Source of the DNA: Acutalibacteraceae bacterium
GTDB lineage: Bacteria; Bacillota; Clostridia; Oscillospirales; Acutalibacteraceae
Assembly: GCA_045577905.1 (NCBI GenBank)
Contig: JAZNJE010000123.1
Span: 1 to 56,761, forward strand
Length of the DNA: 56,761 bases
Reading direction: 5' to 3'
Part shown: positions 9,107 through 55,429 of the stretch, piece after piece
Layout: every line of letters starts with the position of its first letter
Numbering within the stretch: position 1 is the first letter of the stretch
The notes under the pieces: generated by a model
Databases searched by the model: none
Seen by the model: only the letters and a program-made list of their open reading frames with translations
Told to the model about the DNA's origin: nothing
Made by a program: the position numbers and the translations under genes

Positions 9107-9139
9107 AAAATCGCTCGGTATCTTACCGAGCGATTTTTA
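9105..9139. terminator. Bidirectional intrinsic terminator
   Basis: An 11-bp stem ATCGCTCGGTA/TACCGAGCGAT is flanked by A and T runs, between convergent genes. Confidence 0.7.
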
Positions 9140-9142
9140 TTT

Positions 9143-11619: not shown

Positions 11620-11667
11620 AATAAATCCTCCCTTCCCGACAGTGGCAGAGAGGATAAAAGTTCCGGT

Positions 11668-11772
11668 CTGTTTAGCGGGATGCGGCAAACAAACCGTTGA
11701 AGCCGAACTTCCTTCGTCTGTCGGACAACTCCCCGTCCCGACAGCACTGAACGCTTGAATGCCTACTCTAAC
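11668..11772 (-). promoter_or_regulatory. THF (tetrahydrofolate) riboswitch
   Basis: The minus-strand RNA carries the conserved blocks AGAGUAG, GCGUUCAGUG, GGGA, ACGAAG and GCAUCCCGCU in the canonical order. A downstream AUCCUCUC can pair with the SD GGGAGGAU. Confidence 0.8.
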
Positions 11773-23872: not shown

Positions 23873-24868
23873 TTATGCTTTTTTGATTATCCTTATCTGC
23901 AAACGGTCAATTTTCTTGCCGTAAACACCTGCATAATCATTGTTATCGGTTACCCACGGATAGTAACTGCCGCCGACCCTTGACACTCGGCACTGAACAG
24001 AGTAAGAAGGCTCGCCCAAAAGCCGTACCCTAACACAGTCAATATCCTTGCCGATGATTCCGGCATAATCCTCTCGGTTTTTAACCCAAGGGAGCCACCT
24101 TCCGCCGAGGGTGTGAACCTGATATTCAATATCCCCTTCGGTCAGTTCGGCATATATGCATTGGATATCCTGCCTCGGCAGTCCTGCATAGTCGCTCTCT
24201 CCGTTTACATTGGGAAGCCAACCGCGTTCGGCGGTATATACCTGATAGAGAACGTCCGGCAGAGCGACCGACTGAGGCTTACAACTCTTCTTTTTGAGTC
24301 CGCAACGGGAGATCAAAACCTCGCTGATTGCCTCGGCACACTGATTTGCGTATTTCTCGCTCAAAATAATCGGAACATCTGCCACCGAGTCCATAAAGCC
24401 AAGTTCAAGCAAGACAGCAGGCATATCGGTCTCTCGCAGTTCGTGAAAATCGGCGGTTGCAAGAGGATTGGCACGGTTGCCCCGAAGCCCGGTTTTGCGG
24501 ATAAGTGCGTTATAAAAATCCACCTTCCAATCGGCGGTTACGGTGTCGGTCGAGGTATATGTGTAGGCAACAATACCACCGCCCGAGCCACCGTTGATAC
24601 CGGCATTATGGTGAATTGAAAGATAAAGATGAGCACCCCATTTATTTGCGGTATCGGTTCTCTTTTTAAGGGAAACGTTGACCTTGCCTGTTATGTCATC
24701 AACCCTTATAAGTTCCGCCCCGTCATATTCCGATAAAATGGCTTGTACCTTATCGCAAATACGGGAGTTAAGGCTCCATTCCCTTGTTTCGTTCGGGTCA
24801 ATAGACTTTAAACATCTTTTACCGGCGGAATAAAGTCCGTGACCGGCGCTAAGAGCAATTTTAAACAC
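23873..24868 (-). CDS. Endolysin: N-acetylmuramoyl-L-alanine amidase (Amidase_3) with three C-terminal ChW-like repeats
   Basis: Catalytic-domain motifs SAGHG, SIHHNAG and ELGFMDS. The repeat Y.V....G.WLPWV......AG..G..ID is present three times. GTG start follows AAGGAG. Confidence 0.85.
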   Translation of the reverse strand: MFKIALSAGHGLYSAGKRCLKSIDPNETREWSLNSRICDKVQAILSEYDGAELIRVDDITGKVNVSLKKRTDTANKWGAHLYLSIHHNAGINGGSGGGIVAYTYTSTDTVTADWKVDFYNALIRKTGLRGNRANPLATADFHELRETDMPAVLLELGFMDSVADVPIILSEKYANQCAEAISEVLISRCGLKKKSCKPQSVALPDVLYQVYTAERGWLPNVNGESDYAGLPRQDIQCIYAELTEGDIEYQVHTLGGRWLPWVKNREDYAGIIGKDIDCVRVRLLGEPSYSVQCRVSRVGGSYYPWVTDNNDYAGVYGKKIDRLQIRIIKKA

Positions 24869-24870
24869 AG

Positions 24871-25131
24871 TTATTCTCCTTTTTCAATAAAAATCTTGAA
24901 TGTTTGATGCAGTCCGGTGGATGCGAGACCCGAAACAAGACCGCCGAGCAAAACTTGGGGGGTAAAAACGAATCTGTTTAGCCAAAAAGCAAGAACTAAA
25001 CCTATTGTTCCCATAATAAGCGGAATGTAGCGGTTAATTTTATCCCCGGGCAAAATATTCTTTATAATATATCCTACGCAAAGACATATTCCAATAATGA
25101 TAAACTCAAAATAATCTTTTAAAAATTCCAT
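24871..25131 (-). CDS. Phage holin
   Basis: 86 aa with 2-3 TM helices and a charged C-terminus, immediately upstream of the endolysin. Confidence 0.7.
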   Translation of the reverse strand: MEFLKDYFEFIIIGICLCVGYIIKNILPGDKINRYIPLIMGTIGLVLAFWLNRFVFTPQVLLGGLVSGLASTGLHQTFKIFIEKGE

Positions 25132-25135
25132 AAAT

Positions 25136-25384
25136 CTAACCTCCTTTGTGAAATTCTTCCAAATCTGCTATTCGGTGGTTTACAACCTTGATTTCTTCGT
25201 TTTGGACGGCATCGCTTTTTTCAAGTTCGCCGACCCGTTCAATCACACGGTTGTGCTTTTCAACCTTTTTTTCAAGTTGCTCTATTCGGTAAAGGGCAAG
25301 CCTGTTGGAAACAAGGATGCCACCAAAGGTGCCGAAAAGGGTACCGATAAGAGAAATTATACTGACAGTAAGTGCTTCGCTCAT
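25136..25384 (-). CDS. XhlA-like TM plus coiled-coil lysis accessory protein
   Basis: 82 aa with an N-terminal TM helix and a heptad-rich tail (IEQLEKKVEKHNRVIERVGELEKSDAVQNEEIK). Its position before the holin and amidase matches the PBSX xhlA-xhlB-xlyA arrangement. Confidence 0.5.
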   Translation of the reverse strand: MSEALTVSIISLIGTLFGTFGGILVSNRLALYRIEQLEKKVEKHNRVIERVGELEKSDAVQNEEIKVVNHRIADLEEFHKGG

Positions 25385-25617
25385 AAAAGGGACCTCTCCT
25401 CATTTTTTATTTTCTCAACAAAACTATTGTACTCTGCAAATTCTTCGGGTTTAGTATCCCTCTGCCTGAGTATTGCGAGTTCATCATCAACCGAATAGAC
25501 CTCACGAATGCGGTTTACCACCCTCTGCTCATAAGGAACAGGAGGAATATCTTTCTGCATTTGGGCAATTTCTTCCTCGGTCATATCTCTGTAAATTCCA
25601 TTATCATATATTCTCAT
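25381..25617 (-). CDS. Small tail-fibre-associated protein (XkdW-like)
   Basis: 78 aa with the motif DDELAILRQRD..PEEFAEYN, which is common downstream of fibre genes in Firmicute prophages. The ATG lies 2 nt after the fibre stop. Confidence 0.45.
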   Translation of the reverse strand: MRIYDNGIYRDMTEEEIAQMQKDIPPVPYEQRVVNRIREVYSVDDELAILRQRDTKPEEFAEYNSFVEKIKNEERSLL

Positions 25618-25619
25618 TT

Positions 25620-27008
25620 TTAACGCCCCCAAACCTTGAATTTTGTGCCTGCTGCAAATCCGTTTTCAGATGTGTTAAACTTTAAATCCTGACCCACGCT
25701 CGATATATAATTATAATTCCTTGCATCATTCATAAAGTAAGTCGAAACTGCTTTAAAGTTTGAACCTGCATTTGACGTAGTATAGTAATAAGAAGTTAGG
25801 TTTCCGTCACAAAAAATCTTATTATCAGGTGATATATATAAATCAGCAACAAAGTATAACTTTCCCGTTGATTTTGGACTTGCTTGTGAAGTCCACAACT
25901 GGGATCCTTCAAACGTCAAGCGAATTGATTGCGATGTTATTGTAGTATCACTCGGTATAACTAATGATTCTATATGGATTTCTTTAAAGCGAAGGTTACC
26001 TTTCGGTATTCGTATCTCCGTTACGGCCTCAGTTAAGGTTATATCCTCTATAAGTTCCCATTCTTTTTGAGCAACGGTTGATATTGCCTCGGCAACCGCT
26101 TTACCGCTTTGAGGGTTCAAACTTTCGGGGGAGTAGGTCTTGTCAACCGCCGACTTATTAAGTTTGTCGGAAACATCCTTAACAGCCTTAACACTGTTTA
26201 AGACAGTCGGATTTATGCCGTCCGAGGTAATATCAAGCAAATATTTATTGCCGACGATATATCCAAGTTCGGCAAATTTATCCAAGGAAGTGCTTTTCAA
26301 AAGACCCTGGCAATCGGTAAAAATCAACTCAAAGTTATTGTCAACGAGAGGCTTGATGTTTATAAGAGTATGGATATTTCTGCCGTTTGTTCCGTAATTG
26401 ATATCAAAAGGTGTTATTTCGGTAAGTTCAAGGTTAGCCTTCTCGACCACATCGGGGGTTTTGCCCGGCTCGCCCTTAAATTCTCCCCGTTCAAGACGGC
26501 CTTCAATGTCAAGCACAAGGTTTTGGGTTTCATTTTTGGTTTCGGTTAGTTCTTCTGCCGACACCCCTGCGCTGAGTATTTCGTCACGAATAGACCTTAC
26601 CGATTCTTCCATTGCCGAAAGGCTTTGGTGGGGCTTATCTTCGGCAAGGGGGCTTCGTTTAAGGGAGGTCAGATGTACCTTTACGGGGAAGGACAAAATT
26701 TCGGCATCGCGGTCGGTTATGACAAAAACCACCTCGACCTCATTGCCGAATCGTGTAGCCGAATAGGGCAGAGGGCGGGAAAAAGCACCCGAGGGGGAGG
26801 GGGTAAGATTCTCCGACGGGTTCCAACCGTCAACCGTGTTAAAATCAATGCGGAAAAGAGCAGATTCGCCGAGCATTTTTTTCAAAGAAGGGTCCATAAC
26901 AAAAGTAAAAAGGGTTGCGTTATCCTCGTACTGCATACCGCCCCAAACCCTCGGCGACGGGGTTTCGCGGTCGGCAGAAACGGTAAAAGTGTAGTTTCTA
27001 ACAGCCAT
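25620..27008 (-). CDS. Tail fibre / receptor-binding protein
   Basis: 462 aa with an N-terminal virion-attachment-like domain, a coiled-coil segment, a short collagen-like GEFKGEPGKTPD stretch and a beta-rich C-terminus. It lies between the tail and lysis genes. Confidence 0.55.
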   Translation of the reverse strand: MAVRNYTFTVSADRETPSPRVWGGMQYEDNATLFTFVMDPSLKKMLGESALFRIDFNTVDGWNPSENLTPSPSGAFSRPLPYSATRFGNEVEVVFVITDRDAEILSFPVKVHLTSLKRSPLAEDKPHQSLSAMEESVRSIRDEILSAGVSAEELTETKNETQNLVLDIEGRLERGEFKGEPGKTPDVVEKANLELTEITPFDINYGTNGRNIHTLINIKPLVDNNFELIFTDCQGLLKSTSLDKFAELGYIVGNKYLLDITSDGINPTVLNSVKAVKDVSDKLNKSAVDKTYSPESLNPQSGKAVAEAISTVAQKEWELIEDITLTEAVTEIRIPKGNLRFKEIHIESLVIPSDTTITSQSIRLTFEGSQLWTSQASPKSTGKLYFVADLYISPDNKIFCDGNLTSYYYTTSNAGSNFKAVSTYFMNDARNYNYISSVGQDLKFNTSENGFAAGTKFKVWGR

Positions 27009-27042
27009 ATTTTTTCTCCTTTATAATCATAATGGTCATTAT

Positions 27043-29004
27043 TTAACGATTCCTACGCGGCGTATAAAAAACCGCAAAATCGTTTATTTCAAGTTTTCCT
27101 TTTGCCGAAATCACAAACAGTATGTCTGTAAGAAAGGCGGGAAGGCGGACTTCGTTCGAGCCGTTAAAAATTTCGGTCGTCATAAAGTGCTCCCCGTCGG
27201 CAAAAACCGAAAGTTCGGCATATCCGTCGGCTTTTATGACGGCAAGTACCGAATGGAGGCGAGCCTGTTCGGGATTATCGAAGGGAGATATTGTAACCGA
27301 GGTTTCAATCGGCAGAGAGTCGGCCTCGTCGGGGTCAAGAGTGCCGAGCAAAAAGCGGTCGCAATCATCTTTCAGGGTAAAAACATATATTGAACTGCTC
27401 ATATTGTTGGCAAGGAAAAAAGCATTGCCCCCAACCGAAAGGGCATTAAGCACCTTGACGGGAAGGTCAAAGGAAGGAATAAAGGACAGGTTTTTGCCGA
27501 TTGGAACCGAAAATACAGAGTTTTCGGTAAAAACCAGATAGTTTTCGCCGTCGGCAACGGCAAAACGGGGCTCCCCGTCCACTTCTCCCGCCTTGTCACA
27601 GGAAAGTGAGGAAGAAAGGGAGAAAATCTCGCCCGATTCGGAGGAAAACAGCATTTTGTCCTCTGTTTTGACGAGGGTTCGGGGAAGAAGGGTTGTTCCA
27701 AGACCGGCAACCGATTCCAAGGTAAGTTTGGGTGTAGAAAAGGAGGAAGGAGGCCTTGTTCCCGATAAAACATCGGGGATTGAATAGGGCTCGGAGGAGA
27801 CAACCTTTGCCGAGAAAACCGTGTGAGGTTTAAAAATTAAGAGTTTTCCTTTAACCGAGTCGAGAGCAACCACCGAACCCGACGGCTCGGGCAGAGAAAC
27901 AGAGCAACTTTTCGGAAAATAAAGGGGATTTACGGGGTCTATCCACAAAAGGTCGTGAGGATAGTATCGGCTTCCCGAAAAAACTGTAACCGATTCCGAA
28001 CCGCTTCCCTTAAAGGCGGCAAGGGTGGTTGAACGGCTCATAGAACATACCCTTAAAGCCTCATCGGGGGAAACCGTCTTGTACCGAAAAGTAAGACTGT
28101 TCGGCCGACCTGCGTAGGGTAGAGGGAAGGTGGCGGGACCGTCATAGAAAATGATTTTACCGCTGCTTCTGTCACAGTACATAACCACCTCGGTTTCGTC
28201 AACCGTTTGGGGAGCCGAATGGGTAGAGCCTGCGGCAATTTCCCATACCGTTTTGTCCCCCTCTGCCGAAACATAGGTAGCCCTGATTTTTTCGGAGGGG
28301 TCAGGCAGTCGGGGCAAAATAAAAATATAGGAATGTCGGTCGGCGGTAAAGGTGCAGTCGATAACCGACGTCAGCAAATTTTCGCTTTCAAAGACGGCGG
28401 GGGCGGGGATATAGAAGTCATCTGCCTCGCCATTTACAAATAGGTTGCCTCTGCCGTTTATAAATGCCGTAGGTATATAAAAATCTCCGTCGCTGAGCAA
28501 TCGCCAGGAATCAAGGGTAGATGCAAGTTCGTAAAATCTTACCGTATCGGGTTGGTTGCCGTAACAGATACGGACGGCAAGATATATGCCGGCACCGTAA
28601 AGGGGTTTGCCCGAGTAAAGGAAAAAGGTATCGGGGACGCCAAAGGTGTAACTGTCGGAACGGGAAAAGAGCACCTTACCGAGGGGCATAATTTCGCCGG
28701 TCTCAAAAAAAGCATTAAAGGCATATGAAATATTGCTGTACCCATCCTCCTCGATAACCGCCGCTATTTGCGCCTGACGGTTATTTATGCCGAGGGTAAG
28801 GTCGGTAACCGAAAATGTTGTATAGGAATCTTCGGTCAGGATAGGGTTAAAAATTACGGGAGACGCAGGTAGGCGCATACCCGACCTTGAAACGAGTTTT
28901 CGGTCTTTCGGCACCATATTTACGGCAGACCGAATTTTATCAAAATTACTCTCCGAATTTACCGACACCCTAACAAGATTTCTCTTTTTTGGGTTAATTA
29001 GCAC
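27043..29004 (-). CDS. Large tail structural protein (unknown family)
   Basis: 653 aa, beta-rich. GTG at 29004 lies 6 nt after GGAGGTG and overlaps the upstream stop by 11 nt. The ORF-track start at 29139 would overlap the upstream gene by 145 nt. Confidence 0.5.
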   Translation of the reverse strand: MLINPKKRNLVRVSVNSESNFDKIRSAVNMVPKDRKLVSRSGMRLPASPVIFNPILTEDSYTTFSVTDLTLGINNRQAQIAAVIEEDGYSNISYAFNAFFETGEIMPLGKVLFSRSDSYTFGVPDTFFLYSGKPLYGAGIYLAVRICYGNQPDTVRFYELASTLDSWRLLSDGDFYIPTAFINGRGNLFVNGEADDFYIPAPAVFESENLLTSVIDCTFTADRHSYIFILPRLPDPSEKIRATYVSAEGDKTVWEIAAGSTHSAPQTVDETEVVMYCDRSSGKIIFYDGPATFPLPYAGRPNSLTFRYKTVSPDEALRVCSMSRSTTLAAFKGSGSESVTVFSGSRYYPHDLLWIDPVNPLYFPKSCSVSLPEPSGSVVALDSVKGKLLIFKPHTVFSAKVVSSEPYSIPDVLSGTRPPSSFSTPKLTLESVAGLGTTLLPRTLVKTEDKMLFSSESGEIFSLSSSLSCDKAGEVDGEPRFAVADGENYLVFTENSVFSVPIGKNLSFIPSFDLPVKVLNALSVGGNAFFLANNMSSSIYVFTLKDDCDRFLLGTLDPDEADSLPIETSVTISPFDNPEQARLHSVLAVIKADGYAELSVFADGEHFMTTEIFNGSNEVRLPAFLTDILFVISAKGKLEINDFAVFYTPRRNR

Positions 29005-29332
29005 AGGGCTCACCTCCGAAAAGAGTGTTGCGGACGGTGTCGGTGCAGGAGAGGTACTTCTTTTTAAGATTGTTATAAACGTCGTTAAACTCAGAGGCCC
29101 CTGCGTCATCCCCCAACAATATACTGATGAGCATTGCAATACCGATTTCGAGGAGTATTTTTCCTCCCCTTTGAAGGGTGGGAATCGGGTCGGTCAAAGA
29201 GCAAACCGACTCGGCACCTATATCACTCAGTATGGTGTTTGTGAAGCCGACCGCCGCCTTTTTAATAAGTTCCGAAGGTGCACCACCTCCGCAGAGGGCA
29301 TAGGCTTCGGTTAAAATATCAATTACCTTCAT
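28994..29332 (-). CDS. Head-tail connector/adaptor-size protein (unknown family)
   Basis: 112-aa helical protein overlapping the portal stop, in the position expected for a head-completion or adaptor protein. Confidence 0.4.
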   Translation of the reverse strand: MKVIDILTEAYALCGGGAPSELIKKAAVGFTNTILSDIGAESVCSLTDPIPTLQRGGKILLEIGIAMLISILLGDDAGASEFNDVYNNLKKKYLSCTDTVRNTLFGGEPCAN

Positions 29333-30935
29333 TTTTAATTTCCTCCATCTGATTTTTTAGGTCCTCAATATCGGGAATGAGGGAAGAAGGCAGTCGCTTT
29401 ACATACTGCAAGGCTGAAATTGCCCCCTTTTCGTAAAGAGAAGTCAGCAGTTTTGCAGAATCTTCTTCACTGCGTGTGACTCCTTCGGACAAGACAACCG
29501 AAACCGACAAAAGAAGGTCACGGTACCGTGCAGAATCGAAGGGGAAATACCACTCTCCGTTTTCGTCGCTTATTTTGAGACCTCTTTTTCCGTACATTGT
29601 CACAAAAAACTCTGCCCAAATAAGGGCAATTTCCTCTATAAAACGGTTGAAGCGGTTTTTGAGGAGAACAAGGGGTTCGGTAGCCGCTGCACGCAGGGCG
29701 ATGATTGCGGATGTATTGTCGGTTGACATGTCACCCAGAGCAGCCATTGTAGCACCGCTTTGGGAGAGGGTATTTACAATAAGTTGAGATACCGATTGAT
29801 TAAAGCCGGAAGAAAAATCAGGCGGATTTATGTATTTTACCGCAGATGAAATTTCCTCCGCATTACCCCAAACACGGATTATTTGTCCGGGGTCGTTGGT
29901 AATGTCCTCGGGGACGAGTTCTCCGTTTACTACCATAAGGGGCATACCGCTTGACACCGCCGACCAAACCGATGCCGTAATCATACGGTTTATTGCAATC
30001 TGATTGGGTATTAAGTAGGTAATTTCGCTGTCGCCGTAAATATTGTTGTCACGGGGCTCCCAAACAAACCCCGCAAGGGGATACAGCCTGACCCCGATGT
30101 CCCACTCTTCACGGACCGTAAAGTCTCGGGTTACCTTAACCGCAAAAATGTGCATACTGCCGTCAGGAAGCCTCTTTTTATAAAGACGGGTCAAAAGAAG
30201 AATCTTTTCTGCCGACTCCTCAGGAGTTGGCTCAGGCAGAGAGGTCTGTCCGAAGAGCCTTGCCTCATAAAGAAGGTCGGCAAGAGGCTTTTTCTCGGCA
30301 AGAATAATAAAGGGTTGAGATTGAAGACGGGTGCAGGTGGGGTCGCCGAAATATACGTTTTCGGCTCGGACAACCTCCGAAACAATGTCTCCGAGTATTG
30401 GTTTTCCACCGATTTTGTCTGCATAAAGCCCCGTTCTTACCGACGGGTCAAAATAGGTGTAGATATATCCGCTTCCCGAAATATATGCGTTTTTAAGGGC
30501 AGAGTCCAAAAGTGCGGGCAGTCCCACCCTTTTGGAGACGGTGTCTCGGTAGGAGTTAAGTGCCGAGGTCATAAGGGCAATTTCATTCTTGCTTTGTATC
30601 GGAGCATAGAGAGAATCTCCCCGCTTTGAAAGAGCCTTTCTTTCTTCCTTGACGGCACGGTCGGTATCCTTGGTGTGGGGGACACCCTCTGCGGTGTAGC
30701 AAACCTTAATCTTCGATGAGACAAGTTGACTCATTTTGAAGTCGCCTATTCTCTTAATAACATTGTGTCTGACCAAAGGGCGGTCGGAAGGAGAGGAAAC
30801 ACCGCTCCACTGGTCGCCCGCAAAAAAGCGTTCGTTAAATTTTATCTGCTCATAAAGTCCTCTGTTTCCTACCGAGGACTTAAATTGCCGAATACGGTTA
30901 TATTCTTCAAAGATTTTTTCGCGGCTTATCTGCAT
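29319..30935 (-). CDS. Portal protein
   Basis: 538 aa with a portal-typical N-terminal motif (NERFFAGDQW), appropriate size and genomic context. The ATG at 30935 lies after a terminator hairpin and the RBS-like GAAAGGA. Confidence 0.7.
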   Translation of the reverse strand: MQISREKIFEEYNRIRQFKSSVGNRGLYEQIKFNERFFAGDQWSGVSSPSDRPLVRHNVIKRIGDFKMSQLVSSKIKVCYTAEGVPHTKDTDRAVKEERKALSKRGDSLYAPIQSKNEIALMTSALNSYRDTVSKRVGLPALLDSALKNAYISGSGYIYTYFDPSVRTGLYADKIGGKPILGDIVSEVVRAENVYFGDPTCTRLQSQPFIILAEKKPLADLLYEARLFGQTSLPEPTPEESAEKILLLTRLYKKRLPDGSMHIFAVKVTRDFTVREEWDIGVRLYPLAGFVWEPRDNNIYGDSEITYLIPNQIAINRMITASVWSAVSSGMPLMVVNGELVPEDITNDPGQIIRVWGNAEEISSAVKYINPPDFSSGFNQSVSQLIVNTLSQSGATMAALGDMSTDNTSAIIALRAAATEPLVLLKNRFNRFIEEIALIWAEFFVTMYGKRGLKISDENGEWYFPFDSARYRDLLLSVSVVLSEGVTRSEEDSAKLLTSLYEKGAISALQYVKRLPSSLIPDIEDLKNQMEEIKNEGN

Positions 30936-30951
30936 AAAATCATCCTTTCTT

Positions 30952-30981
30952 AAAAAAGGGACGGAGGTTGCCCTCCGTCCC
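30952..30981 (-). terminator. Intrinsic terminator-like hairpin between the capsid and portal genes
   Basis: A 10-bp GC-rich stem GGGACGGAGG/CCTCCGTCCC is followed by TTTTTT on the minus strand. Confidence 0.6.
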
Positions 30982-30988
30982 AAAGTGA

Positions 30989-32170
30989 TTACGCTACCGT
31001 AACAGTTGCAACCTCGGAATTAACCGAGTTGGTACCGTCGGCGGTAACCTTACAGAAGAAGTAATATTCTCCTGCGGGAAGGTCGTCAGGAATGTTCATA
31101 GATGCGGCAGTTTCTCCTATAAGACGGGCAGCGCCCCTACCGTTTTTGATGTCAGCCTGATACCATTGGTATGCAAGTTCAACACCTGCTTCGGAGGTTG
31201 CGGCAACCGAGAGAGACTCGTTTATTGCACCCTCGGTTACGGTAATGTCGGAGGGAGAAGACGTAATGGTAAGGGGAGAAGAGAAGAAGCCCCAAACCGT
31301 ATCGGTTGCCGAAGCCTTTACAAATACGTCGTAGTAAATACGGTAATCGAACTTGTAGGCATCGGCGCCGGTGTTCTGTTCAGGTGTGAAAACCCTGAGT
31401 TTTTCGGTTTTCTTTACAAGATGAGCAGCGGTTTTGGGAAGAAGGAGCATATAAATTCCGCGGGCGCCGTCGGCAGGAACAAATCCGCCGACCGCATCGT
31501 TCTTGAAGTTATAGGCGGTCTTCATTCTCTCGCTTACAACGGGAATAATGGCAACACCGTTAATCGACTTAACTTTGAGGTTGATTTCGCCCTGCTTAAA
31601 GTCAGAAACGGTAACAAAGCGTGTAATCTCGGCAGAGGACATAAGTGCGGCATAAGCAACAGAGTCCATAAAGCAAACGAGGTCACGGTCATAGCCTGCA
31701 ACCGACTGAACCTGATTTACAAGGGTAGAAAAAGCCTCGAAAGGTCTTTCAAGGTCGCCTGCAATTGCGTTGCCCTTTGAAAGAGCAAGGTTGCCGAGTT
31801 TTGATATAACATAGGCATCACATTCGGGAACAACCTTTGTTTTAACATATTCGCCGAGCACCTTTCCTGCGAGATTTGCAATGCCGGTCTCGTCCATATC
31901 TTCACGGTCGATGGTAAGCGAACGGGCACGGTCCATTGTCATTGTGTAGGAACTTCCTTTTACCGAAACTGAGCCGCTTGCAAAACCGTTAGCACGGTCA
32001 TAATCGGCTAGTCCGTCAAAGTCAACGTCGGGAATGATAACGGTTTTTGCACCGACAAAACGGGTGCGAAGAATGTTGTCGGCAAGGAATGCGGTGGCAC
32101 TCTTTGCCTCGAAAACACGGTCAAGTGCGCCGGAATAGTTTTCGGCGGCAGCAATAGAATTGATAGACAT
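30989..32170 (-). CDS. Major capsid protein with a C-terminal Ig-like domain
   Basis: 393 aa, immediately after the scaffold gene. The last ~95 aa resemble a bacterial Ig-like domain (ITVTEG....YQWY....AGEYYFFCKVT). Confidence 0.7.
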   Translation of the reverse strand: MSINSIAAAENYSGALDRVFEAKSATAFLADNILRTRFVGAKTVIIPDVDFDGLADYDRANGFASGSVSVKGSSYTMTMDRARSLTIDREDMDETGIANLAGKVLGEYVKTKVVPECDAYVISKLGNLALSKGNAIAGDLERPFEAFSTLVNQVQSVAGYDRDLVCFMDSVAYAALMSSAEITRFVTVSDFKQGEINLKVKSINGVAIIPVVSERMKTAYNFKNDAVGGFVPADGARGIYMLLLPKTAAHLVKKTEKLRVFTPEQNTGADAYKFDYRIYYDVFVKASATDTVWGFFSSPLTITSSPSDITVTEGAINESLSVAATSEAGVELAYQWYQADIKNGRGAARLIGETAASMNIPDDLPAGEYYFFCKVTADGTNSVNSEVATVTVA

Positions 32171-32196
32171 AAATTTTTTCTCCTTAAATAGTTTTT

Positions 32197-32703
32197 TCAG
32201 TTACCCCAAACGCCCTTTAAAAATTCTGCGGCGGTGGGGTCCTGTCGGTCATCTGCCGACAGAGAGCCGGTGGTAGAGGCGGCGGTAAAACATTGATTCT
32301 CGGTTTCTTCTGCCGCCGCCTTTGCCTTTTTATACTCGTAGAGCAGGTACTCAAAAACCAGTCCTGTACCATTATTTTTTGCGGCTGTTTTTACCTCCTC
32401 GGGGAGCATATCGGGTGAGGAAATTTCGGGGAAATGAATACGTAATTGACCAAAATTATCGGGGCTTTCAGCCTGCGCGCGCAATTTTTCGTAGTCCTCA
32501 TAAATCTGGTCAAACTTCATTCCCTTTTGTGCCAGACTGACGGCAGTTTCTCGGTCAAGGTCCAAAATTTCTTTGTTAAACTTGATTTTCATAAAACTGT
32601 CGCAGGGGGAAGGGAGGTCGGGTGTGGTTGCCTCGTCCTTCTCATTTAAAATCTCCTCCTCGGTCTGTGGTTGGACCGAATCATCTTTTAATTTTTCTTC
32701 CAT
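32197..32703 (-). CDS. Scaffolding protein
   Basis: Acidic, helical, 168 aa, with the IKFNKEI..L...A..LAQKGM motif, located upstream of the capsid gene. Confidence 0.6.
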   Translation of the reverse strand: MEEKLKDDSVQPQTEEEILNEKDEATTPDLPSPCDSFMKIKFNKEILDLDRETAVSLAQKGMKFDQIYEDYEKLRAQAESPDNFGQLRIHFPEISSPDMLPEEVKTAAKNNGTGLVFEYLLYEYKKAKAAAEETENQCFTAASTTGSLSADDRQDPTAAEFLKGVWGN

Positions 32704-32873
32704 TTAGAAATTTCCTCCGTTAATTCAAAAATTTTTTCGCTTCCGTCAAAGGACAGGAAGTCATAAAGGCCGACTGCTTCGCCCTTCCTTCGGGTGGCAG
32801 GGGGCTTTTTTGTCCTTCTTTTTCCTAAATTCCAACCGATAATAAGAAAGACAAGTGCAACAAGTGCGGTCAT
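32688..32873 (-). CDS. Small membrane peptide (one TM followed by a basic stretch)
   Basis: The ATG at 32873 overlaps the TerL stop (ATGA). Function is unknown. Confidence 0.4.
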   Translation of the reverse strand: MTALVALVFLIIGWNLGKRRTKKPPATRRKGEAVGLYDFLSFDGSEKIFELTEEISKWKKN

Positions 32874-34117
32874 ACACTCCACCCCCCTTTGTTTCCGTAA
32901 AGCCTCCTCGACGGCTCTCCGCCGTTTTTAACATCGTAAAAGGCATAGCGGAGAGCATCCATAAGGTGGTTGTCGGAGTCCATCGGGGTGTTGGGAAGAC
33001 TCTTGTTCCAACGGTATGAGGAAAGTTCTTCCAGAGTGTTCTTGCATTTTGGGTCAACAATAATTCGGTATTCGCTTATGTTCATAATTCCGTTTATAAT
33101 ACTGTCTTTGCCCTTGACCGACGGCATAAGACGGGTCAGACCGAGCCGTCTTAAATCCTCGTTCGTTTTGGGCTCGGCAGAGTCGGCACGTATCCGTTCC
33201 TTGCCGTAGCCCTTTTGGATAATCAGTCGGGCAATGTCGGAATTGAGCATCTTTTTCTGACAAAACTCATCAAAAATATAAATGATTTTTTCCTCACGGT
33301 TGACCTTGATTGCAATAAAGGCGGTCGGGTCGGTGGTGTAGCCGTAATCGAGGCCGAAAAATGCCTGCCAGTTTCCCTTGGCGGTGTCGGGAACACCCGT
33401 AATCCAGTTTTCATAAACCAGACCTTCGGCAATTCCCCATTCGCCAAGCCCCGCAACAGCATATCGACGGGGATGCTCGGTTTTGAGCCGTTCAAAAACC
33501 GCACGGTCGGTTTGGTCCAAAAATTCGTTTACCAGATAGTTGGTCGAAAAAACCGTACAGTCGGGGGAAGGATTGTCAAAGAAACGGGCTTTCAGCCAAT
33601 GCTTTTCGCTCCAAGGGTTAAAGGTCAAGGTTGTCTGCTTGAAAAGGGGAGGGGGAAGACTTCCCCTCGGCACCGATAAATCAAGTTTTTCAAAGTCGGA
33701 AAGTTCGGCGATTTCATAGGCTTCTTCAACCCAAACAAAATTGAGAAAACCTTTCTCGACGGTGGTTGATGCCAACTTCAAAACGTCGTCAAACCCTCTG
33801 AAAAGTATTTTTTGACCGGTGGGAATATAGGTCATTTCAAGCGGAGCAACACAGTTTTTAAAAAGGTGAGAAACCCCGAGTTTTTCCTGCGCCCATTTAA
33901 GTTGGGCAAAGGTCGAGTCTCGGTGGGTGTTCATAACGGCTCGGACTACAAGAATATTGCTTTGGGGATACCGTATGAGGCGGTAAATAAGATTGAGCGC
34001 AGTTGTCGCAGATTTTTTGGAGCCCTTTCCGCCCTTTAAAACCCTGTAACGGGTCTTACAGTTCCAAAACTCATCGTATCCGTCTCCGACCTTCTCTTTA
34101 AGACTTACCGATGTCAT
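32870..34117 (-). CDS. Terminase large subunit (PBSX family)
   Basis: Walker A GGKGSKKS, Walker B-like FVWVEEA, and nuclease motifs GLDYG, DSAEP and DNHLMDALRYA. The start is uncertain (ATG at 34117 or GTG at 34132). Confidence 0.9.
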   Translation of the reverse strand: MTSVSLKEKVGDGYDEFWNCKTRYRVLKGGKGSKKSATTALNLIYRLIRYPQSNILVVRAVMNTHRDSTFAQLKWAQEKLGVSHLFKNCVAPLEMTYIPTGQKILFRGFDDVLKLASTTVEKGFLNFVWVEEAYEIAELSDFEKLDLSVPRGSLPPPLFKQTTLTFNPWSEKHWLKARFFDNPSPDCTVFSTNYLVNEFLDQTDRAVFERLKTEHPRRYAVAGLGEWGIAEGLVYENWITGVPDTAKGNWQAFFGLDYGYTTDPTAFIAIKVNREEKIIYIFDEFCQKKMLNSDIARLIIQKGYGKERIRADSAEPKTNEDLRRLGLTRLMPSVKGKDSIINGIMNISEYRIIVDPKCKNTLEELSSYRWNKSLPNTPMDSDNHLMDALRYAFYDVKNGGEPSRRLYGNKGGWSV

Positions 34118-34352
34118 CGACAAGGGTAACACCTCCCGAAACCTCTCCGAGTCCGATAATTCCGAGCAGTTCCTTTATTGCGGAAAGTTCTCCTCCCGCC
34201 GCCTTTTTATAGAGTGCGGCGGCAATTACCGTCATACGGGTCGGCTTTTTCACCTTAATTTCCATCTCCGAGAGCCGTTCATCTTCTTCTGCTGTCGCAG
34301 GCAGACGTAACAGACGGAGCAGTTCATCGGATAACTGTTTTTTGCTTTTCAA
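34098..34352 (-). CDS. Short terminase small-subunit-like protein
   Basis: 84 aa with a segment resembling the TerS helix (MTVIAAALYKKAAGGELSAIKELL). TTG start lies 7 nt after AGGAGGTG, and the gene overlaps TerL. Confidence 0.4.
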   Translation of the reverse strand: MKSKKQLSDELLRLLRLPATAEEDERLSEMEIKVKKPTRMTVIAAALYKKAAGGELSAIKELLGIIGLGEVSGGVTLVDDIGKS

Positions 34353-34379
34353 TTCGGCTCACCTCCTGACCGCAGGCAA

Positions 34380-34445
34380 ATTCTACAACAAAACAGTAGG
34401 ACATAAACGGACAAAAAAGCCTAAAAAGCGGACACGGGAGGACAT
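34380..34445 (-). promoter_or_regulatory. Promoter of the phage-like locus: four phased TGTCC direct repeats plus the -10 TAGAAT, with no -35
   Basis: Minus strand reads ATGTCCtcccgTGTCC-N16-TGTCCgtttaTGTCC-N13-TAGAAT. Box start-to-start spacings are 10, 21 and 10 nt. Confidence 0.6.
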
Positions 34446-34505
34446 ACTTTCCCAAAAAAGTAAAACTCCGCCGATTTCCTCGACGGAGTTTAAAAAACAT
34501 ATTAA

Positions 34506-36140: not shown

Positions 36141-36488
36141 ATGTCGAAAAACTATTTACTAACATATTCTGAGCAACTTGCAACAGAGATCGAATTGCTT
36201 TGTCAAAATATAAAAGCCTCTTCCAACACTCTTTTCCAAATCCGTAAGAGTTCAAGCAGTGCATATGCAAATATTCGTGAGGCTAATTACGGACAAAGCA
36301 AAGCGGATATGCTTTCAAAATTTGAAATTGCACTCAAGGAATGCAGTGAAACAGAGGGTTGGTTGCAGTTGTTATATAATACAAAGGGCATCAATGAAAC
36401 GACCTACAAAAGCCACAGAAATCTTTGCGGTCGCATCAGGCGACTGTTGATCGCCTCTTGTAAAACATTAAAGGAGAATGTAAAATGA
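36141..36488 (+). CDS. Four-helix-bundle protein (23S rRNA intervening-sequence protein / Avd-like family)
   Basis: 115-aa helical protein with the motifs KFEIALKECSETEGWLQLL and LIASCKT.KEN, both shared with the paralog at 323..676. Confidence 0.8.
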   Translation: MSKNYLLTYSEQLATEIELLCQNIKASSNTLFQIRKSSSSAYANIREANYGQSKADMLSKFEIALKECSETEGWLQLLYNTKGINETTYKSHRNLCGRIRRLLIASCKTLKENVK

Positions 36489-49583: not shown

Positions 49584-49660
49584 CCGCTCGTGGCGCAGTT
49601 GGATAACGCAGCAGATTCCGATTCTGAAGAACGGGGGTTCGAATCCCTTCGAGCGGGCCA
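49584..49660 (+). tRNA. tRNA-Arg (anticodon CCG), atypical, CCA encoded
   Basis: Manual cloverleaf: acceptor CCGCTCG/CGAGCGG (C1:G72), anticodon loop TTCCGAT, T arm GGGGG-TTCGAAT-CCCTT with two G:U pairs, and one D-stem mismatch. Confidence 0.7.
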
Positions 49661-49911
49661 AAGAAAACGACAAGTTTCGATAGAACCTTGTCTTTTTCAG
49701 TTATATTCGCCTTGCGGCGAGTTAGGCACAATATCACTTAAAACTGTAGGGGTTCAAACACATAGGTTGACTTTTTGAAAGGTATCGAATCTACACACCC
49801 TTTCCAAATAAAAATGAGCCTACCGTAAGGTTTCGGCTTGTTTTTATTTTGTGATAACTATGAGGGATGAGAAGCAGGAGTAGTAGCGAATACTATAGTT
49901 TTATAAAAAAG

Positions 49912-49991
49912 ATGTCCTTTTTTTTCGCGTTTTATGTCCACCTGTGTCCATATTTTTTACTTTATAATAATTCTTGCAAATCGATTTGCAA
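49912..49991 (+). promoter_or_regulatory. Islet promoter: three phased TGTCC repeats, N13, the -10 TATAAT, then a perfect 18-bp palindrome
   Basis: ATGTCC (49912), ATGTCC (49934) and TGTCC (49945), then 13 nt, then TATAAT (49963..49968). The palindrome TTGCAAATCGATTTGCAA is at 49974..49991. Confidence 0.6.
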
Positions 49992-50018: not shown

Positions 50019-50576
50019 ATGAGTTTTTTTAGCGAATTGTTTTCTGCCGGAGTGGGGGGTGAGAAAACACCTGCTGCACCGAAATGGAACAAATGGATAC
50101 ATCGTAATTTAAGTGATAATCATTGTCCAGAATGTCTGATGCTCGATAGTTGTTGGTTTCAAAGAGAGAAAACGCCCAAGTGGCCACACCATCCGTTTTG
50201 TCATTGTATCTTAGAAGATATCCCGTATAACGATGTATTAACCAAAACCACATCTGATAGCGCTTATAGTAAATTTGATATATACTTATTCAACACAGAA
50301 GGTAGATACTCTGACACTAAAAAGCATTTGTTTGAAAGTTGGGGATATACCGTTGAAGATGGTAAGTGGTTGCAAAGCGAAATTAATAAACAAGGGTTAG
50401 AAAAGTATATTTCGGGCAATTATGTATTAGGAAAATTGAATAAAGACGGGCAACGAATTAGTATTCGAATTGAAATTCCAAGAAAAGATAAAACTGAAAA
50501 AGTTTCTTTTATTACCGGTTGGATGGCATATCCAAACGGACATATACAGTTAACAACGCCTTATGGAGGTAAATAA
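50019..50576 (+). CDS. Mini MuF/SPP1-gp7-type zinc-ribbon motif fused to a DUF6883-like C-terminal domain (toxin-like or effector-like)
   Basis: W...L.D..CPEC..LD......P..P.HPFCHC matches the C-terminal signature of phage head-morphogenesis (MuF) domains. The C-terminal ~110 aa fit the DUF6883 pattern (K...YL......K..F...GY....W..L ... TGWMAYP). Confidence 0.55.
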   Translation: MSFFSELFSAGVGGEKTPAAPKWNKWIHRNLSDNHCPECLMLDSCWFQREKTPKWPHHPFCHCILEDIPYNDVLTKTTSDSAYSKFDIYLFNTEGRYSDTKKHLFESWGYTVEDGKWLQSEINKQGLEKYISGNYVLGKLNKDGQRISIRIEIPRKDKTEKVSFITGWMAYPNGHIQLTTPYGGK

Positions 50577-50577
50577 T

Positions 50578-50826
50578 ATGAAAATGATGGATTGTGTAGA
50601 AGTAATTGTTGAAAAAGAAAAGTATGTTAAGGACGGAGTTCATAAAGGAATGCAGGGCTGGATTTGTTTGGAACAACGAACCGACGGATATTGGCTTGTG
50701 AATTTTCCGCAATACGGCGAAAAAGAGGATATTGCCGAAATCTCAATTAGCGAAGAAGATTTAAAACTTATTCCCAAAATGGATGCGAGAGTTAACGAAC
50801 AAATAAAAGCTAAATTCGGCGATTAA
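50578..50826 (+). CDS. DUF4926-like small protein (putative immunity/antitoxin partner)
   Basis: 82 aa with an SH3-like pattern (D.VEVIVEK...V..G..G.I......DGYWLVNF). The ATG lies 8 nt after GGAGG and 2 nt after the upstream stop. Confidence 0.5.
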   Translation: MKMMDCVEVIVEKEKYVKDGVHKGMQGWICLEQRTDGYWLVNFPQYGEKEDIAEISISEEDLKLIPKMDARVNEQIKAKFGD

Positions 50827-52512: not shown

Positions 52513-53784
52513 TTATTTTATAATGTCGCAGCCCATATACTTTCTGAGCGCTTCGGGTACCGTGACGGAACCGTCGGCATTCTGATAGTTTTCGAGAATT
52601 GCGGCAACCGTTCTGCCCACCGCAACACCCGAACCGTTAAGGGTGTGAACGTATTGAGCCTTATCCTTAGGTGTTTTCTTAAATCTGATGGAGCCGCGTC
52701 TTGCCTGATAATCTTCAAAGTTGGAGCAGGAAGAAATTTCAACATATCTTCCGTATGAAGGCATCCAAACCTCAATGTCATAGGTCTTGGCAGATGAGAA
52801 ACCAAGGTCGCCCGAGCAAAGGCAAACAACACGGTAGGGAAGGCCGAGTCCCGCCAACACCCGTTCTGCATCAGCGGTCAGTTTTTCGAGTTCCTCGTAA
52901 GAGTTTTCCGGGTCGGCAAACTTAACAAGTTCAACCTTGTTAAACTGATGCTGGCGGATAAGACCGCGGGTGTCTCTGCCGGCAGAACCTGCTTCGGCCC
53001 TGAAACAAGCCGAATATGCACAATACTTTATGGGAAGGTCCTTGCCGTCCAGAATTTCGTCGCGGTGCATATTGGTAACGGGCACCTCGGCGGTAGGAAT
53101 AAGGAAATACTCGTTATTCGAAAGTTTGAAAGCATCTTCTTCAAACTTGGGAAGTTGTCCCGTTGCGGTCATCGAAGCACGGTTTGCCATAAAGGGAGGT
53201 AAAATTTCGGTATAGCCGTGCTCGGTATGTGTGTCAAGGAAATAAGAGATAATTGCACGTTCAAGACGGGCGCCGAGACCCTTATAGAAATGAAAACGGG
53301 TGCCGGTAACCTTTGCGGCAGTTTCGGGGTCCAAAATTCCCAAATCTGCACCTATATCCCAATGTGCTTTGGGCTCAAAATCAAACTTTTTGGGCTCGCC
53401 GTTTCGCCTCAGTTCGGGGTTGCAGGAGTCATCGGTTCCGACAGGCACCGTGTCGGAAGGTATGTTTGGAATCATAAGAAGCAGTTCACGCTGTTTTGCT
53501 TCAAGTTCTGCAAGTTTGGCGTCGTCTGCCTTAATCTTCTCGGAAATCTCCTTCATTTCGGCAAAAATTGGGGCAACATCCTTGCCCTCCTTTTTAAACT
53601 GGGGTATCTTTTTGGAAACATTGTTCTGTTCCGCCTTCAAAACCTCAACCGAAGCAATAATTTCTCGGCGGTGAGCATCGGTTTCCAAAAGCATATCAAT
53701 CTCTCGGTCAAGGTTTCCGTTGCGGTTTTTAACCGCCTGCTTAACCCTGTCGGCTTCCTGTCTTACAATCTTAATGTCCAACAT
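52513..53784 (-). CDS. serS: Seryl-tRNA synthetase
   Basis: N-terminal coiled-coil MLDIKIVR..., class II motifs (FRAEAGS, GSG.AVGRT). Confidence 0.95.
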
Positions 53785-53795
53785 AATATTATCTC

Positions 53796-54635
53796 CTAAT
53801 CTGCTATTTTCTTTGCGAGTTCAGTGAGTTCTTCATCACTGTAAAATTCAAGTGTAAGGGTTCCCTTTCCGGCAGAAGTCGGCGAAATCTTTACCTTTCT
53901 ACCGAGTTCGTTTTTAAGGGCAAGTTCAACCTCTTTATAAAAATGAGGCTTTTCGGTCTTAGGCCGTTTTGGAGAAACCTTATTTGCCTTGGCGACTGCT
54001 TCAAGATCACGCACCGAGGCACCGTTTTGACTTAAACGGAAAAGGGTTGCACGAAGTTCGCTGCCCTTTTCGGCAGAGAGCAGAACCCTTGCGGCACCCG
54101 ACGAAAGTTTACCCTTTTTAAGGGCTTCGGTCTCTTCGGGGGTCAGTTCCAAAAGACGGAGGGTGTTTGCGACTGCGGGACGGCTTTTTCCGACCGCCTC
54201 GGCAACCTGCTCCTGAGTCAGAGAATAGGATACCATAAGCGAACGGTAACCGAGAGCCTCTTCCACGGGGTTAAGGTCCTCTCTTTGGAGGTTTTCGATA
54301 AGAGCCGCCTCCATAACCTCGCGCTCGTCCATTTCACGGATAACGACGGGAACGGTGCGAAGTTCTGCCATACGGCAGGCACGCCAACGGCGTTCTCCCG
54401 CAACTATTTCATATCCGCCCATAGGCTTCGGGCGAACCAAAATGGGTTGCAAAAGCCCGTGCTTTTTTATCGACTCGGAAAGTTCGATAAGAGCCTCCTC
54501 GTCAAAGTCTTTTCGGGGTTGGTCGCGGTTGGGCTCAATCTGAGAGAGCATAATTTCGGTGACCGAACTGTCGTTACCGTTTGCCTCCAAAAGAGAGTCG
54601 AGTCCTCTGCCGAGACCTCCTAATGTTTTAGCCAT
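53796..54635 (-). CDS. spo0J: Chromosome partitioning protein ParB/Spo0J
   Basis: [11 protein letters not shown]-terminus, the ParB box LLQPILVR...[12 protein letters not shown], and an HTH. Confidence 0.95.
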
Positions 54636-54642
54636 TTACAGT

Positions 54643-55410: not shown

Positions 55411-55429
55411 AAGGCATCTCCTTTTTATA

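Follow-up and report, generated by a model that had tools for sequence, protein, structure and literature searches.

The analysis of the window, a stretch of 56,761 nucleotides (nt) from an Acutalibacteraceae bacterium (GCA_045577905.1, contig JAZNJE010000123.1, positions 1 to 56,761), showed that two promoters lying 15 kb apart carry helically phased direct repeats of the pentamer TGTCC, the last of which ends 13 nt before the −10 hexamer. The first promoter drives a minus-strand operon (34352 to 23873) of phage-particle genes that begins at the position of the small terminase gene, terS. The second drives a gene for a MuF-like protein of 185 amino acids (aa). The boxes together with the −10 hexamer are probably a conserved and portable activator-dependent sigma-A promoter module of a distributed, domesticated phage-particle system. 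This reading rests on sequence, namely on motif statistics, conservation, fixed spacing, regulon membership, concerted variation of the boxes and the lack of a linked regulator. From these we infer that the module activates rather than represses, where transcription starts and what kind of factor is involved.

The terS-side promoter was read directly on the minus strand (34445..34380) as ATGTCC-tcccg-TGTCC-N16-TGTCC-gttta-TGTCC-N13-TAGAAT. Its boxes start at 34444, 34434, 34413 and 34403, giving spacings of 10, 21 and 10 nt. The MuF-side promoter was read on the plus strand (49912..49968) as ATGTCC-N17-TGTCC-acctg-TGTCC-N13-TATAAT, with box starts at 49913, 49935 and 49945 and spacings of 22 and 10 nt. 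The features of the two promoters are as follows.

34463..34491, minus strand: intrinsic-terminator-like hairpin and T-run, directly upstream of the boxes
34440..34444, minus strand: box 1, TGTCC, preceded by A at 34445, distal member of the upstream pair (direct reading and pair scan)
34430..34434, minus strand: box 2, TGTCC, 10 nt past box 1 (direct reading and pair scan)
34409..34413, minus strand: box 3, TGTCC, 21 nt past box 2, at about −40..−36 from the inferred start (column invariant in alignment A2)
34399..34403, minus strand: box 4, the proximal box, TGTCC preceded by A, at about −30..−26, 13 nt before the −10 (direct reading, pair scan and alignment A2)
34380..34385, minus strand: −10 hexamer TAGAAT (direct reading)
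49913..49917, plus strand: distal box, TGTCC preceded by A (direct reading)
49935..49939, plus strand: middle box, TGTCC preceded by A, 22 nt past the distal box (direct reading and pair scan)
49945..49949, plus strand: proximal box, TGTCC preceded by G, 13 nt before the −10 (direct reading and pair scan)
49963..49968, plus strand: −10 hexamer TATAAT
49974..49991, plus strand: perfect 18-bp palindrome TTGCAAATCGATTTGCAA, located between the −10 hexamer and the ribosome-binding site of the 185-aa gene, where the inferred transcript begins

The box sequences, their phasing and spacings and the 13-nt gap at both promoters agreed to the base with the original prediction, which had been made from the letters of the window. 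The hairpin at 34491..34463 ends the upstream SpoVAC/SpoVAEB gene and insulates the first promoter. A near-identical copy of the palindrome TTGCAAATCGATTTGCAA was found in a clade-mate cassette (L258/L260; loci outside the window are given L numbers), and the palindrome is absent from the cassettes with the majority (G-type) box TGTCG. Its role may be that of a second operator or of a 5′ stem-loop. A structured RNA was also tried as an explanation of the promoters and was dropped, as no Rfam family overlaps either of them.

The tandem pair TGTCC-N5-TGTCC occurs three times in the window, both strands counted, against an expectation of 0.04 ± 0.2 from 100 dinucleotide-preserving shuffles. All three pairs are confined to the two promoter intergenic regions. 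A scan of the window for the tandem pair with one mismatch returned a single extra site, which is intragenic. The lone hexamer ATGTCC was not enriched in the window (24 observed, 20 expected).

A consensus scanner found no sigma-70-type −35/−10 pair at the terS-side promoter. The −35 positions of the two promoters are occupied by GTTTAT (terS side) and ACCTGT (MuF side). C-type promoters (boxes TGTCC), including both of the window, have neither a −35-like hexamer nor an extended −10, and the lack of a −35 in the window promoters points to a need for activation. The window boxes are direct repeats with a period in the 10–11-bp range of OmpR/PhoB class II sites, and the module overlaps or replaces the −35 in a fixed register with the −10, as such sites do. 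It had been claimed that the repeats replace the −35. This applies strictly in the clade of the window, whereas most relatives keep a weak GTGAAT or TTGAAT at a 17-nt spacing. The proximal box might instead be read as the −35 of an alternative sigma factor, given its fixed distance from the −10 and the conservation of both elements. We regard this as extremely unlikely: 13 nt is too short for the −35/−10 spacing of the sigma-70 family, the −10 is a plain sigma-A TATAAT, and two to eight in-phase copies at 10 and 21 nt would be left unexplained.

Relatives of terL were found in 177 species-representative genomes, nearly all of them metagenome-assembled genomes (MAGs) of Acutalibacteraceae, and 80 loci were retrieved. 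The core particle genes were present in 61–80 of the 80 loci. In 1.37 Mb of these relatives, both strands scanned, the tandem motif was counted 44 times immediately before the first operon gene, over at least 31 loci. Elsewhere in the 1.37 Mb, it occurred at two effector promoters (the second promoter of the window and a divergent promoter in L018) and at about seven further sites, all intragenic. When no −10 was imposed, the distance between the proximal box and the best −10-like hexamer was 13 nt for 22 of 35 promoters and 14 nt for three. In alignment A2 of six C-type promoters, the boxes, a T-tract and TA.A.T are invariant and the spacers vary. In about 70 Acutalibacteraceae genomes, tandem TGTC[C/G] boxes of 10-bp period stand before the homologous 10-kb particle operon. 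Conservation of the boxes in orthologous loci was thus borne out for both gene sets, whose promoters are boxed at the same 13-nt distance.

The number and form of the boxes differ between clades. The closest relatives (L001, L002 and L005) carry seven or eight TGTCC boxes with the same 10/21 phasing, in arrays that reach about −115 on one helical face; in L005, as many as four boxes follow one another at 10 bp. In L003 and L004 the first operon gene is preceded by three boxes. An intermediate group (L006–L017) has distal TGTCC boxes and a proximal ATGTCG in a hairpin. There, 60–100 nt upstream of the operon (e.g., L006 at about 8700–8770), a 10-bp inverted repeat, CCGGTTTACC...GGTAAACCGG, holds the ATGTCG in its loop and has a T-run behind it; this hairpin looks like a terminator that overlaps the promoter. 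The majority (G-type) consensus is ATGTCGGTGAATGTCGCAAA, with TGTCG in both boxes at a 10-bp period. Most other loci read aaagATGTCGGTGAATGTCGCAaa...TAtaaT, a third promoter type.

The fifth position of the box varies in concert. It is C in all 35 boxes of the terS promoters in the clade of the window. In the intermediate clade it is C in the distal and G in the proximal boxes, and the remaining loci have G in both, sometimes G and C. The cassette of the 185-aa gene behaves likewise: the copy in the window and its metagenome orthologues share the 5′ untranslated region and the N-terminus, and the former has TGTCC where the latter have TGTCG. The L258/L260 cassette, with a protein 85% identical and another chromosomal context, reads TGTCC-N5-TGTCC-N5-TGTCC-N13-TATAAT. 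MAG JAZRZR01 has the operon (L068) on one contig and the cassette (L261) on another, both with TGTCG. A box variant common to unlinked promoters of one genome or clade argues for one trans-acting factor. One such factor had been proposed for both loci of the window, and the orthologous promoters, boxed in the same register with a C/G variant that switches in concert, support the proposal.

The genes of the particle operon are all on the minus strand. After the first gene, the operon spans 23873..34132. Its genes, in the order of transcription, are as follows.

34098..34352, minus strand: 84-aa protein in the TerS position, with a TTG start and AGGAGG at 34367..34362
32870–34132, minus strand: large terminase, terL (PF04466/PF17288; Pfam and PHROG)
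after terL, minus strand: 64-aa open reading frame (ORF)
next, minus strand: scaffold-like protein of 168 aa
30989–32170, minus strand: major head protein (phrog_422)
29319–30983, minus strand: portal (phrog_156)
after the portal, minus strand: proteins of 112 aa, 698 aa and 462 aa (fibre-like), for which no family match was found
next, minus strand: 83-aa protein, then an XhlA-like protein of 82 aa
24871–25131, minus strand: holin (PF16079)
23873–24868, minus strand: amidase (PF01520)

No integrase, repressor or replication gene was found in the particle operon by ORF, Pfam or PHROG annotation, and no att-like repeats were found flanking it. In this it resembles the structural clusters of gene transfer agents (GTAs), which are likewise without integrase, repressor and replication genes. 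The GTA-like trait of a conserved chromosomal position was not found: the host genes flanking the particle operon differ between species, and the locus is without synteny between them. The 84-aa gene has homologues in 57–65 of the 80 loci, and 12 of 18 members of the family match phrog_2412, which is itself unannotated. The protein had no match to Pfam, to the Protein Data Bank (PDB) or to a DNA-binding family. Its earlier label "TerS-like" is therefore apt for the position of the gene and lacks a family or structural match.

TerS oligomers wrap phased repeats. The repeats of the first promoter directly precede the TerS-position gene and have T-tracts separating their pairs, and they could be read as a packaging (pac) site for its product, like pacL of SPP1, with no role in transcription. 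The boxes, however, recur at unlinked cassettes far from the terminase, and they always face a gene, 13 nt from a −10 and 20–70 nt from the start codon. The 84-aa protein is without a detectable DNA-binding family or structural match, and the arrangement of a pac system, one recognition site per element at or in terS, was not found. A pac site is thus very unlikely.

The second promoter of the window heads a cassette of two genes.

50019..50576, plus strand: 185-aa MuF-like protein of minor-capsid type, with a Cys/His motif and DUF6883 (PF21814)
50563..50826, plus strand: 87-aa partner gene, overlapping the 185-aa gene and always found with it

The 185-aa family comprised 524 homologous database clusters, nearly all of exactly 185 aa, with 58–85% identity. 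Its fixed length and conservation indicate a fixed component and not a variable toxin. An AlphaFold (AF2) model built from 40 homologues had a predicted local distance difference test (pLDDT) score of 85.5. The best viral fold matches of the model were to a predicted "minor capsid protein" (E = 8e-6 and 1.6e-4), with weaker matches to MuF-like and head-morphogenesis proteins. PF04233 was not matched by the 185-aa protein even at E = 10, and no match was found in the PDB or in deposited phage genomes. The designation "MuF-like" in the original prediction is accordingly a reasonable name on the evidence of the predicted fold; Pfam does not support it.

The cassette occurs in other genomes in unrelated contexts (ABC transporter, GH127, nrdD/proBA) and thus behaves as a mobile two-gene module. 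Only five loci share neighbours with the second locus of the window. A tRNA-Arg (49584–49660) lies directly upstream of the cassette (50019–50826), and the same is seen in L164 (about 8330–9200). The genes serS, parB and parA at the right end of the window (52513–56704) place the second locus near the chromosomal origin region.

Public metagenomes were scanned with the exact pattern ATGTCGNTGAATGTCG-N13-TANNNT, which returned 69 loci. Sorted by the downstream gene, these included about 14 terS-terL operons and about 17 orthologues of the pair of 185-aa and 87-aa genes. Evident chance matches, in soil and marine data, were few among the 69. Other cassettes encode a protein of about 190 aa with MuF-C (PF04233) and a barnase-type RNase (PF00545), followed by Barstar (PF01337); only the last 50 or so residues of the MuF domain are present. 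A BLASTP comparison of the 185-aa protein with the MuF-C/barnase protein was not significant. A shared Cys/His motif, seen by eye, and the modelled fold suggest that the two may be related. Stand-alone PBECR4 nucleases carry the same module, as in L018 (6149–6736, PF18813, under the second, divergent promoter). The MuF-C/barnase and PBECR4 cassettes (metagenome loci L195, L211, L212, L216, L225 and L187, with L018 and L192) suggest that toxin and immunity cargo may be co-expressed with the particle.

The module also heads genes for a collagen-repeat fibre-like protein followed by a leucine-rich-repeat (LRR)-like protein, and XhlA-like/amidase lysis cassettes. It lies directly upstream of genes for a VapE-like primase/helicase (L208/L209) and a ClpP-like SDH protease (L205). 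On one contig (L174), the module at 189–223 is 175 nt upstream of a full-length dnaA that starts at 399. Through the dnaA, VapE-like and SDH protease sites, particle induction may be connected with DNA replication or with satellite elements. DnaA boxes were considered as the identity of the repeats and rejected: only 6 of 9 positions of the consensus matched, conserved positions were among the mismatches, and there were no DnaA boxes near the L174 module. The boxed cassettes lie in stretches of 7–15 kb without core particle genes nearby, and their separation from the core genes indicates that the system is distributed over the genome. As in GTAs, accessory genes (MuF-like, fibre-like and lysis) are thus found in silico to be unlinked under a shared module. 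The exact motif had no match in IMG/VR, and the relatives of terL in viral contigs are accompanied by ordinary terS genes without boxes.

We propose the following mechanism. The TGTCC boxes would be putative sites for a trans-acting activator. With a sigma-A-type −10 exactly 13 nt downstream, they would make up a terminator-insulated module of about 35–70 bp. The factor would bind pairs of boxes head-to-tail with a 10-bp period, centred near −28 and −38, and in the clade of the window also extra pairs one or two double-turns further upstream, all on one face of the helix. It would supply the contact to RNA polymerase that is normally given by the −35, which is class II-type activation. The module would head a 10-kb phage-derived operon of structural and lysis genes from which the regulator, the integrase and the replication genes have been lost. 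The module would likewise head unlinked cassettes that complete the particle, namely the pair of 185-aa and 87-aa genes and, in relatives, fibre-like, lysis and MuF-C toxin/immunity genes. One factor encoded elsewhere would then switch on the whole distributed set together. In outline, the class II-type activation by one dedicated factor put forward in the original prediction is supported by the phased boxes of the −35 region and by their concerted variation.

Several observations weigh against this mechanism. The transcription start sites were placed from the −10 alone. About 45 of the 80 loci are without two perfect boxes and have degenerate forms, e.g., TGTCGGTGAATGGCG or AGTCGGTGAAAGGCA. 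In L006–L017 the proximal box lies 23 nt from the −10, not 13. The strict pattern of the metagenome scan included the −10 and GTGAA, so that only near-copies could be recovered. The spacer GTTTTTTCGCGTTTTA of the second promoter of the window (49905–49978) recurs in the operon promoters of L001 (5160–5255), L002 (8545–8640) and L005 (4820–4915). This MuF promoter is closer to those three operon promoters than to the operon promoter of the window itself, which implies that the promoter module has been exchanged or duplicated. Some of the "regulon" may therefore be a promoter cassette spread by recombination and not a product of independent selection. Finally, the weak GTGAAT or TTGAAT of the G-type promoters lies at 17 nt, between the boxes and overlapping them, and often stands beside a consensus TATAAT, so that the boxes of these promoters could be an operator.

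An operator at all boxed promoters would mean that a repressor, possibly Spo0A~P as at the early promoters of phi29 and Nf, silences the lytic particle genes. The boxes overlap the −35 region, and the weak xTGAAT at 17 nt, with the consensus TATAAT that G-type promoters often have (sometimes TGn-extended), could give intrinsic activity. There is also a precedent: Spo0A represses phage promoters through tandem boxes that overlap the core promoter (PMC2731898). On the other side, C-type promoters, which lack a −35-like hexamer and an extended −10, should be nearly inactive unaided. An operator has no need for a fixed 13-nt register with the −10, and one-face arrays that extend to about −115 (L001, L002 and L005) are more typical of recruitment than of occlusion. 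We consider repression improbable and retain the activator-dependent module as the preferred reading.

No fitting regulator was found in the 56-kb window, in the 15 kb between its two loci, in the flanks of the clade-mates or in the recurrent flank clusters of the 80 loci. The earlier statement that no candidate regulator stands beside either locus thus held in the window and in the flanks of relatives. The regulators encoded in the window (Rex, PerR-like, NiaR and XRE/RstR-like) are not conserved with the element. The 15 kb between the loci hold genes for NAD biosynthesis, peptidases and similar functions, and the flanks of the relatives hold housekeeping genes. A two-component system between the loci was considered and rejected, the 221-aa gene having no Pfam match and the 496-aa gene encoding an M20 peptidase. 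A WalRK-like pair in L164 was rejected as a positional neighbour seen on one contig only; it is absent from the window. SpoIIID sites were rejected too. GGACA is the reverse complement of TGTCC, while the majority box gives CGACA, and the −10s are of the sigma-A type.

Three named classes of factor were weighed. A Spo0A-type domain is a tentative first choice, a phage-type late activator is somewhat less probable, and an OmpR/PhoB-type regulator is doubtful; the remainder is left to other classes. As judged from the box sequences, the Spo0A-type domain is the best-matching named candidate for the family overall and a poor fit to the boxes of the window itself. By analogy, the phage activators of the Ltr type are an equally close precedent as the Spo0A 0A box.

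The factor could be Spo0A itself or a receiver-less Spo0A_C paralogue, with modified 0A boxes that would tie the particles to stationary phase or sporulation; we hold this to be possible and no stronger. Spo0A recognises the 0A box TGTCGAA through contacts to the bases G2, C4 and G5, and the change G5A lowers affinity about 10-fold (PMC3485338). Spo0A~P dimers occupy a pair of boxes with a gap of 3 bp, a tandem of 10-bp period (PMC2731898). The G-type module matches the TGTCG core and the 10-bp tandem period, as do the Spo0A promoters spoIIA, abrB and phi29/Nf A2c with their direct tandems, and the boxes of the window share with them the arrangement of two tandem boxes 3 bp apart (10 bp from start to start, as in L234). 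The regular expression written for the particle boxes, otherwise confined to the particle regulon, also caught the promoter of spoIIAA-spoIIAB-sigF in another gut Clostridium (L234/L235, 1609–1625, TGTCGAAgtgTGTCGAA, forward). In that promoter, a pair of perfect 0A boxes in tandem comes before a sigma-H-like AAAGGAAAA...GAAT, and it serves as a natural positive control. The abrB-type promoters in L038 and L044 had no 0A boxes and were uninformative as a Spo0A control. The host carries sporulation genes, and a SpoVAC/SpoVAEB gene adjoins the first promoter.

The chromosomes and prophages of gut Clostridia, including prophages with a related terL, commonly encode free-standing DNA-binding domains of Spo0A whose recognition helix is intact. 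The prophage domains have 110–115 aa and the helix SRVERAIRHAIE (L034 3814–4146, L040, L054, L070, L237 8001–8333 and L248–L257), and their genes are placed in the early region or shortly ahead of the late genes. The chromosomal receiver-less Spo0A_C paralogues have 159–177 aa (L230–L236 and L238–L247, e.g., L230 6001–6516 and L238 1501–1980) and lie between adhE and gatCAB or near spoIIA-sigF-spoIID, which are conserved housekeeping positions. The variant TGTCGCAA is found reversed in the promoter of the L230 paralogue, where the orthologue L238 has a reversed perfect 0A box, TTCGACA, 21 nt from TATAAT.

Against a Spo0A-type factor stand the boxes of the window: all seven, like all 35 of the clade, have C at the contacted position 5, so that the TGTCGAA core with G5 was not found in the window. 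A6 and A7 are conserved in no clade. Placement and orientation relative to the −10 also differ from those of the two Spo0A-type promoters compared. The particle boxes face forward at 13 nt from a sigma-A −10, whereas the spoIIA-type boxes are forward and well upstream of a sigma-H-like promoter, and the box of the paralogue promoter is reversed and 21 nt from the −10. A clade-wide switch from G to C is hard to square with a pleiotropic regulator of invariant helix. In addition, the window holds no Spo0A_C gene, nor does one lie less than 10 kb from any locus with boxes.

The original prediction had named an OmpR/PhoB-type winged-helix response regulator that binds in the manner of Pho boxes. 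Pho boxes take the place of the −35, with their ends about 10 bp from the −10, their half-site CTGTCAT shares TGTC with the boxes, and the OmpR sites F1–F3 are arrays of contiguous 10-bp repeats. The module is similar in geometry: head-to-tail direct repeats on one face with a 10-bp period, contiguous arrays of up to four boxes (L005), further upstream pairs, and a site that spans about −40 to −24 in place of the −35 and ends 11–13 nt from the −10. The period differs from the 11 bp of Pho boxes and of WalR and PhoP of Bacillus subtilis, and to our knowledge no consensus of a winged-helix regulator matches TGTC[C/G] at a 10-bp period. No such gene is linked to any locus, the sole OmpR-family gene seen being the WalRK-like neighbour in L164. 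The geometry is thus Pho-box-like. In sequence, the majority variant comes closest to the tandem 0A box, and nothing in these comparisons points to a winged-helix factor, to which we give a low probability.

The third candidate is a late activator of the phage type (RinA, ArpU or LtrC of the Ltr superfamily, or Alt-like) whose gene has moved away from terS, which we regard as a minority possibility. Ltr proteins activate the terS promoter through two to four direct repeats with a terminator upstream, and they are necessary and sufficient (PMC3753634). The late promoters of the Ltr/Alt group (RinA, ArpU, LtrA–C and Alt of TP901-1) are thus, like the first promoter of the window, situated upstream of terS and the morphogenesis and lysis genes, with short direct repeats and a terminator before them (PMC3753634). 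Related true prophages of the same bacterial family use the Ltr system: those with a related terL (L034, L040, L048, L054, L070 and L142) have a RinA/ArpU gene directly upstream of terS (TIGR01636, 32.9 bits). A dedicated, fast-evolving activator would also account for the clade-wide switch of the boxes. In the window, however, no activator gene stands beside terS, its place being taken by the SpoVAC/SpoVAEB gene. Further differences are that the repeats reach the −35 in a fixed 13-nt register and that the module is reused at unlinked loci. No Ltr homologue was found in the window (tblastn, E < 10) or near box-bearing loci (E < 0.01), and no obvious regulator was seen among the genes downstream of the module in the 69 metagenome loci. 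The Ltr-bearing prophages are without a TGTC[C/G] tandem at their late promoters. With an Ltr gene and no boxes in the prophages, and boxes and no Ltr gene elsewhere, the two features are complementary.

The activator-dependent, distributed module was also compared with the GTA of Rhodobacter capsulatus (RcGTA), which had been named as an analogue for its control by CtrA; the analogy is apt at the level of architecture. The accessory genes of RcGTA (fibres, lysis and maturation) are essential, scattered and co-regulated, and CtrA ties RcGTA to the cell cycle. Both systems have a structural cluster without its own regulator, integrase and replication genes, and scattered accessory genes under an unlinked factor. 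The system described here differs in lineage (Clostridia), particle genes and cis-element, its locus is non-syntenic, and it is known from genes alone. Protein delivery is suggested by those of its cassettes that carry toxin/immunity pairs.

The related cassettes, with MuF-C joined to barnase and followed by Barstar, or with PBECR4, resemble the MuF polymorphic toxins of temperate phages (PMC5576092). The cassettes here differ in their size of about 190 aa with the last 50 or so MuF residues and in standing alone outside prophages, and the 185-aa protein of the window differs in being fixed in length, conserved and not polymorphic. Full-text literature searches returned no description of this element or motif.

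A broader and more speculative proposal, which we think unlikely as a whole, is that Acutalibacteraceae have a domesticated phage-particle system scattered over the genome, with a minimal operon for capsid, portal, terminase and lysis and with free-standing cassettes for MuF-like, fibre, lysis and MuF-C toxin/immunity genes, and that a private code of phased TGTC[C/G] boxes unites the set and is read by Spo0A or by a receiver-less paralogue of drifted specificity. It would be a Firmicute counterpart of the CtrA/GafA–RcGTA system, possibly delivering toxins and DNA. If the activator-dependent module is real, a 35-bp sequence suffices to list, from raw genomes and metagenomes, all the genes of a previously undescribed phage-derived particle system. 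The architecture of a structural operon with scattered co-regulated cassettes, so far mainly known from alphaproteobacterial GTAs, would then exist in a major family of gut bacteria. It would be linked to MuF-type toxin/immunity cassettes, whose delivery route is a matter of speculation. The boxes would also offer a handle on the regulator, and hence on when gut Clostridia make particles, including a possible link to sporulation control.

Two further features of the window were recorded. A tetrahydrofolate (THF) riboswitch (RF01831, 79.6 bits) at 11671–11772 on the minus strand lies upstream of a gene for the S-component of an energy-coupling factor (ECF) transporter (11086–11688). Two paralogous genes for "23S rRNA-intervening sequence protein" (PF05635) were annotated at 323–685 and 36141–36488, and their homologues are found no more than a few kb from the particle locus in L021, L022 and L062.

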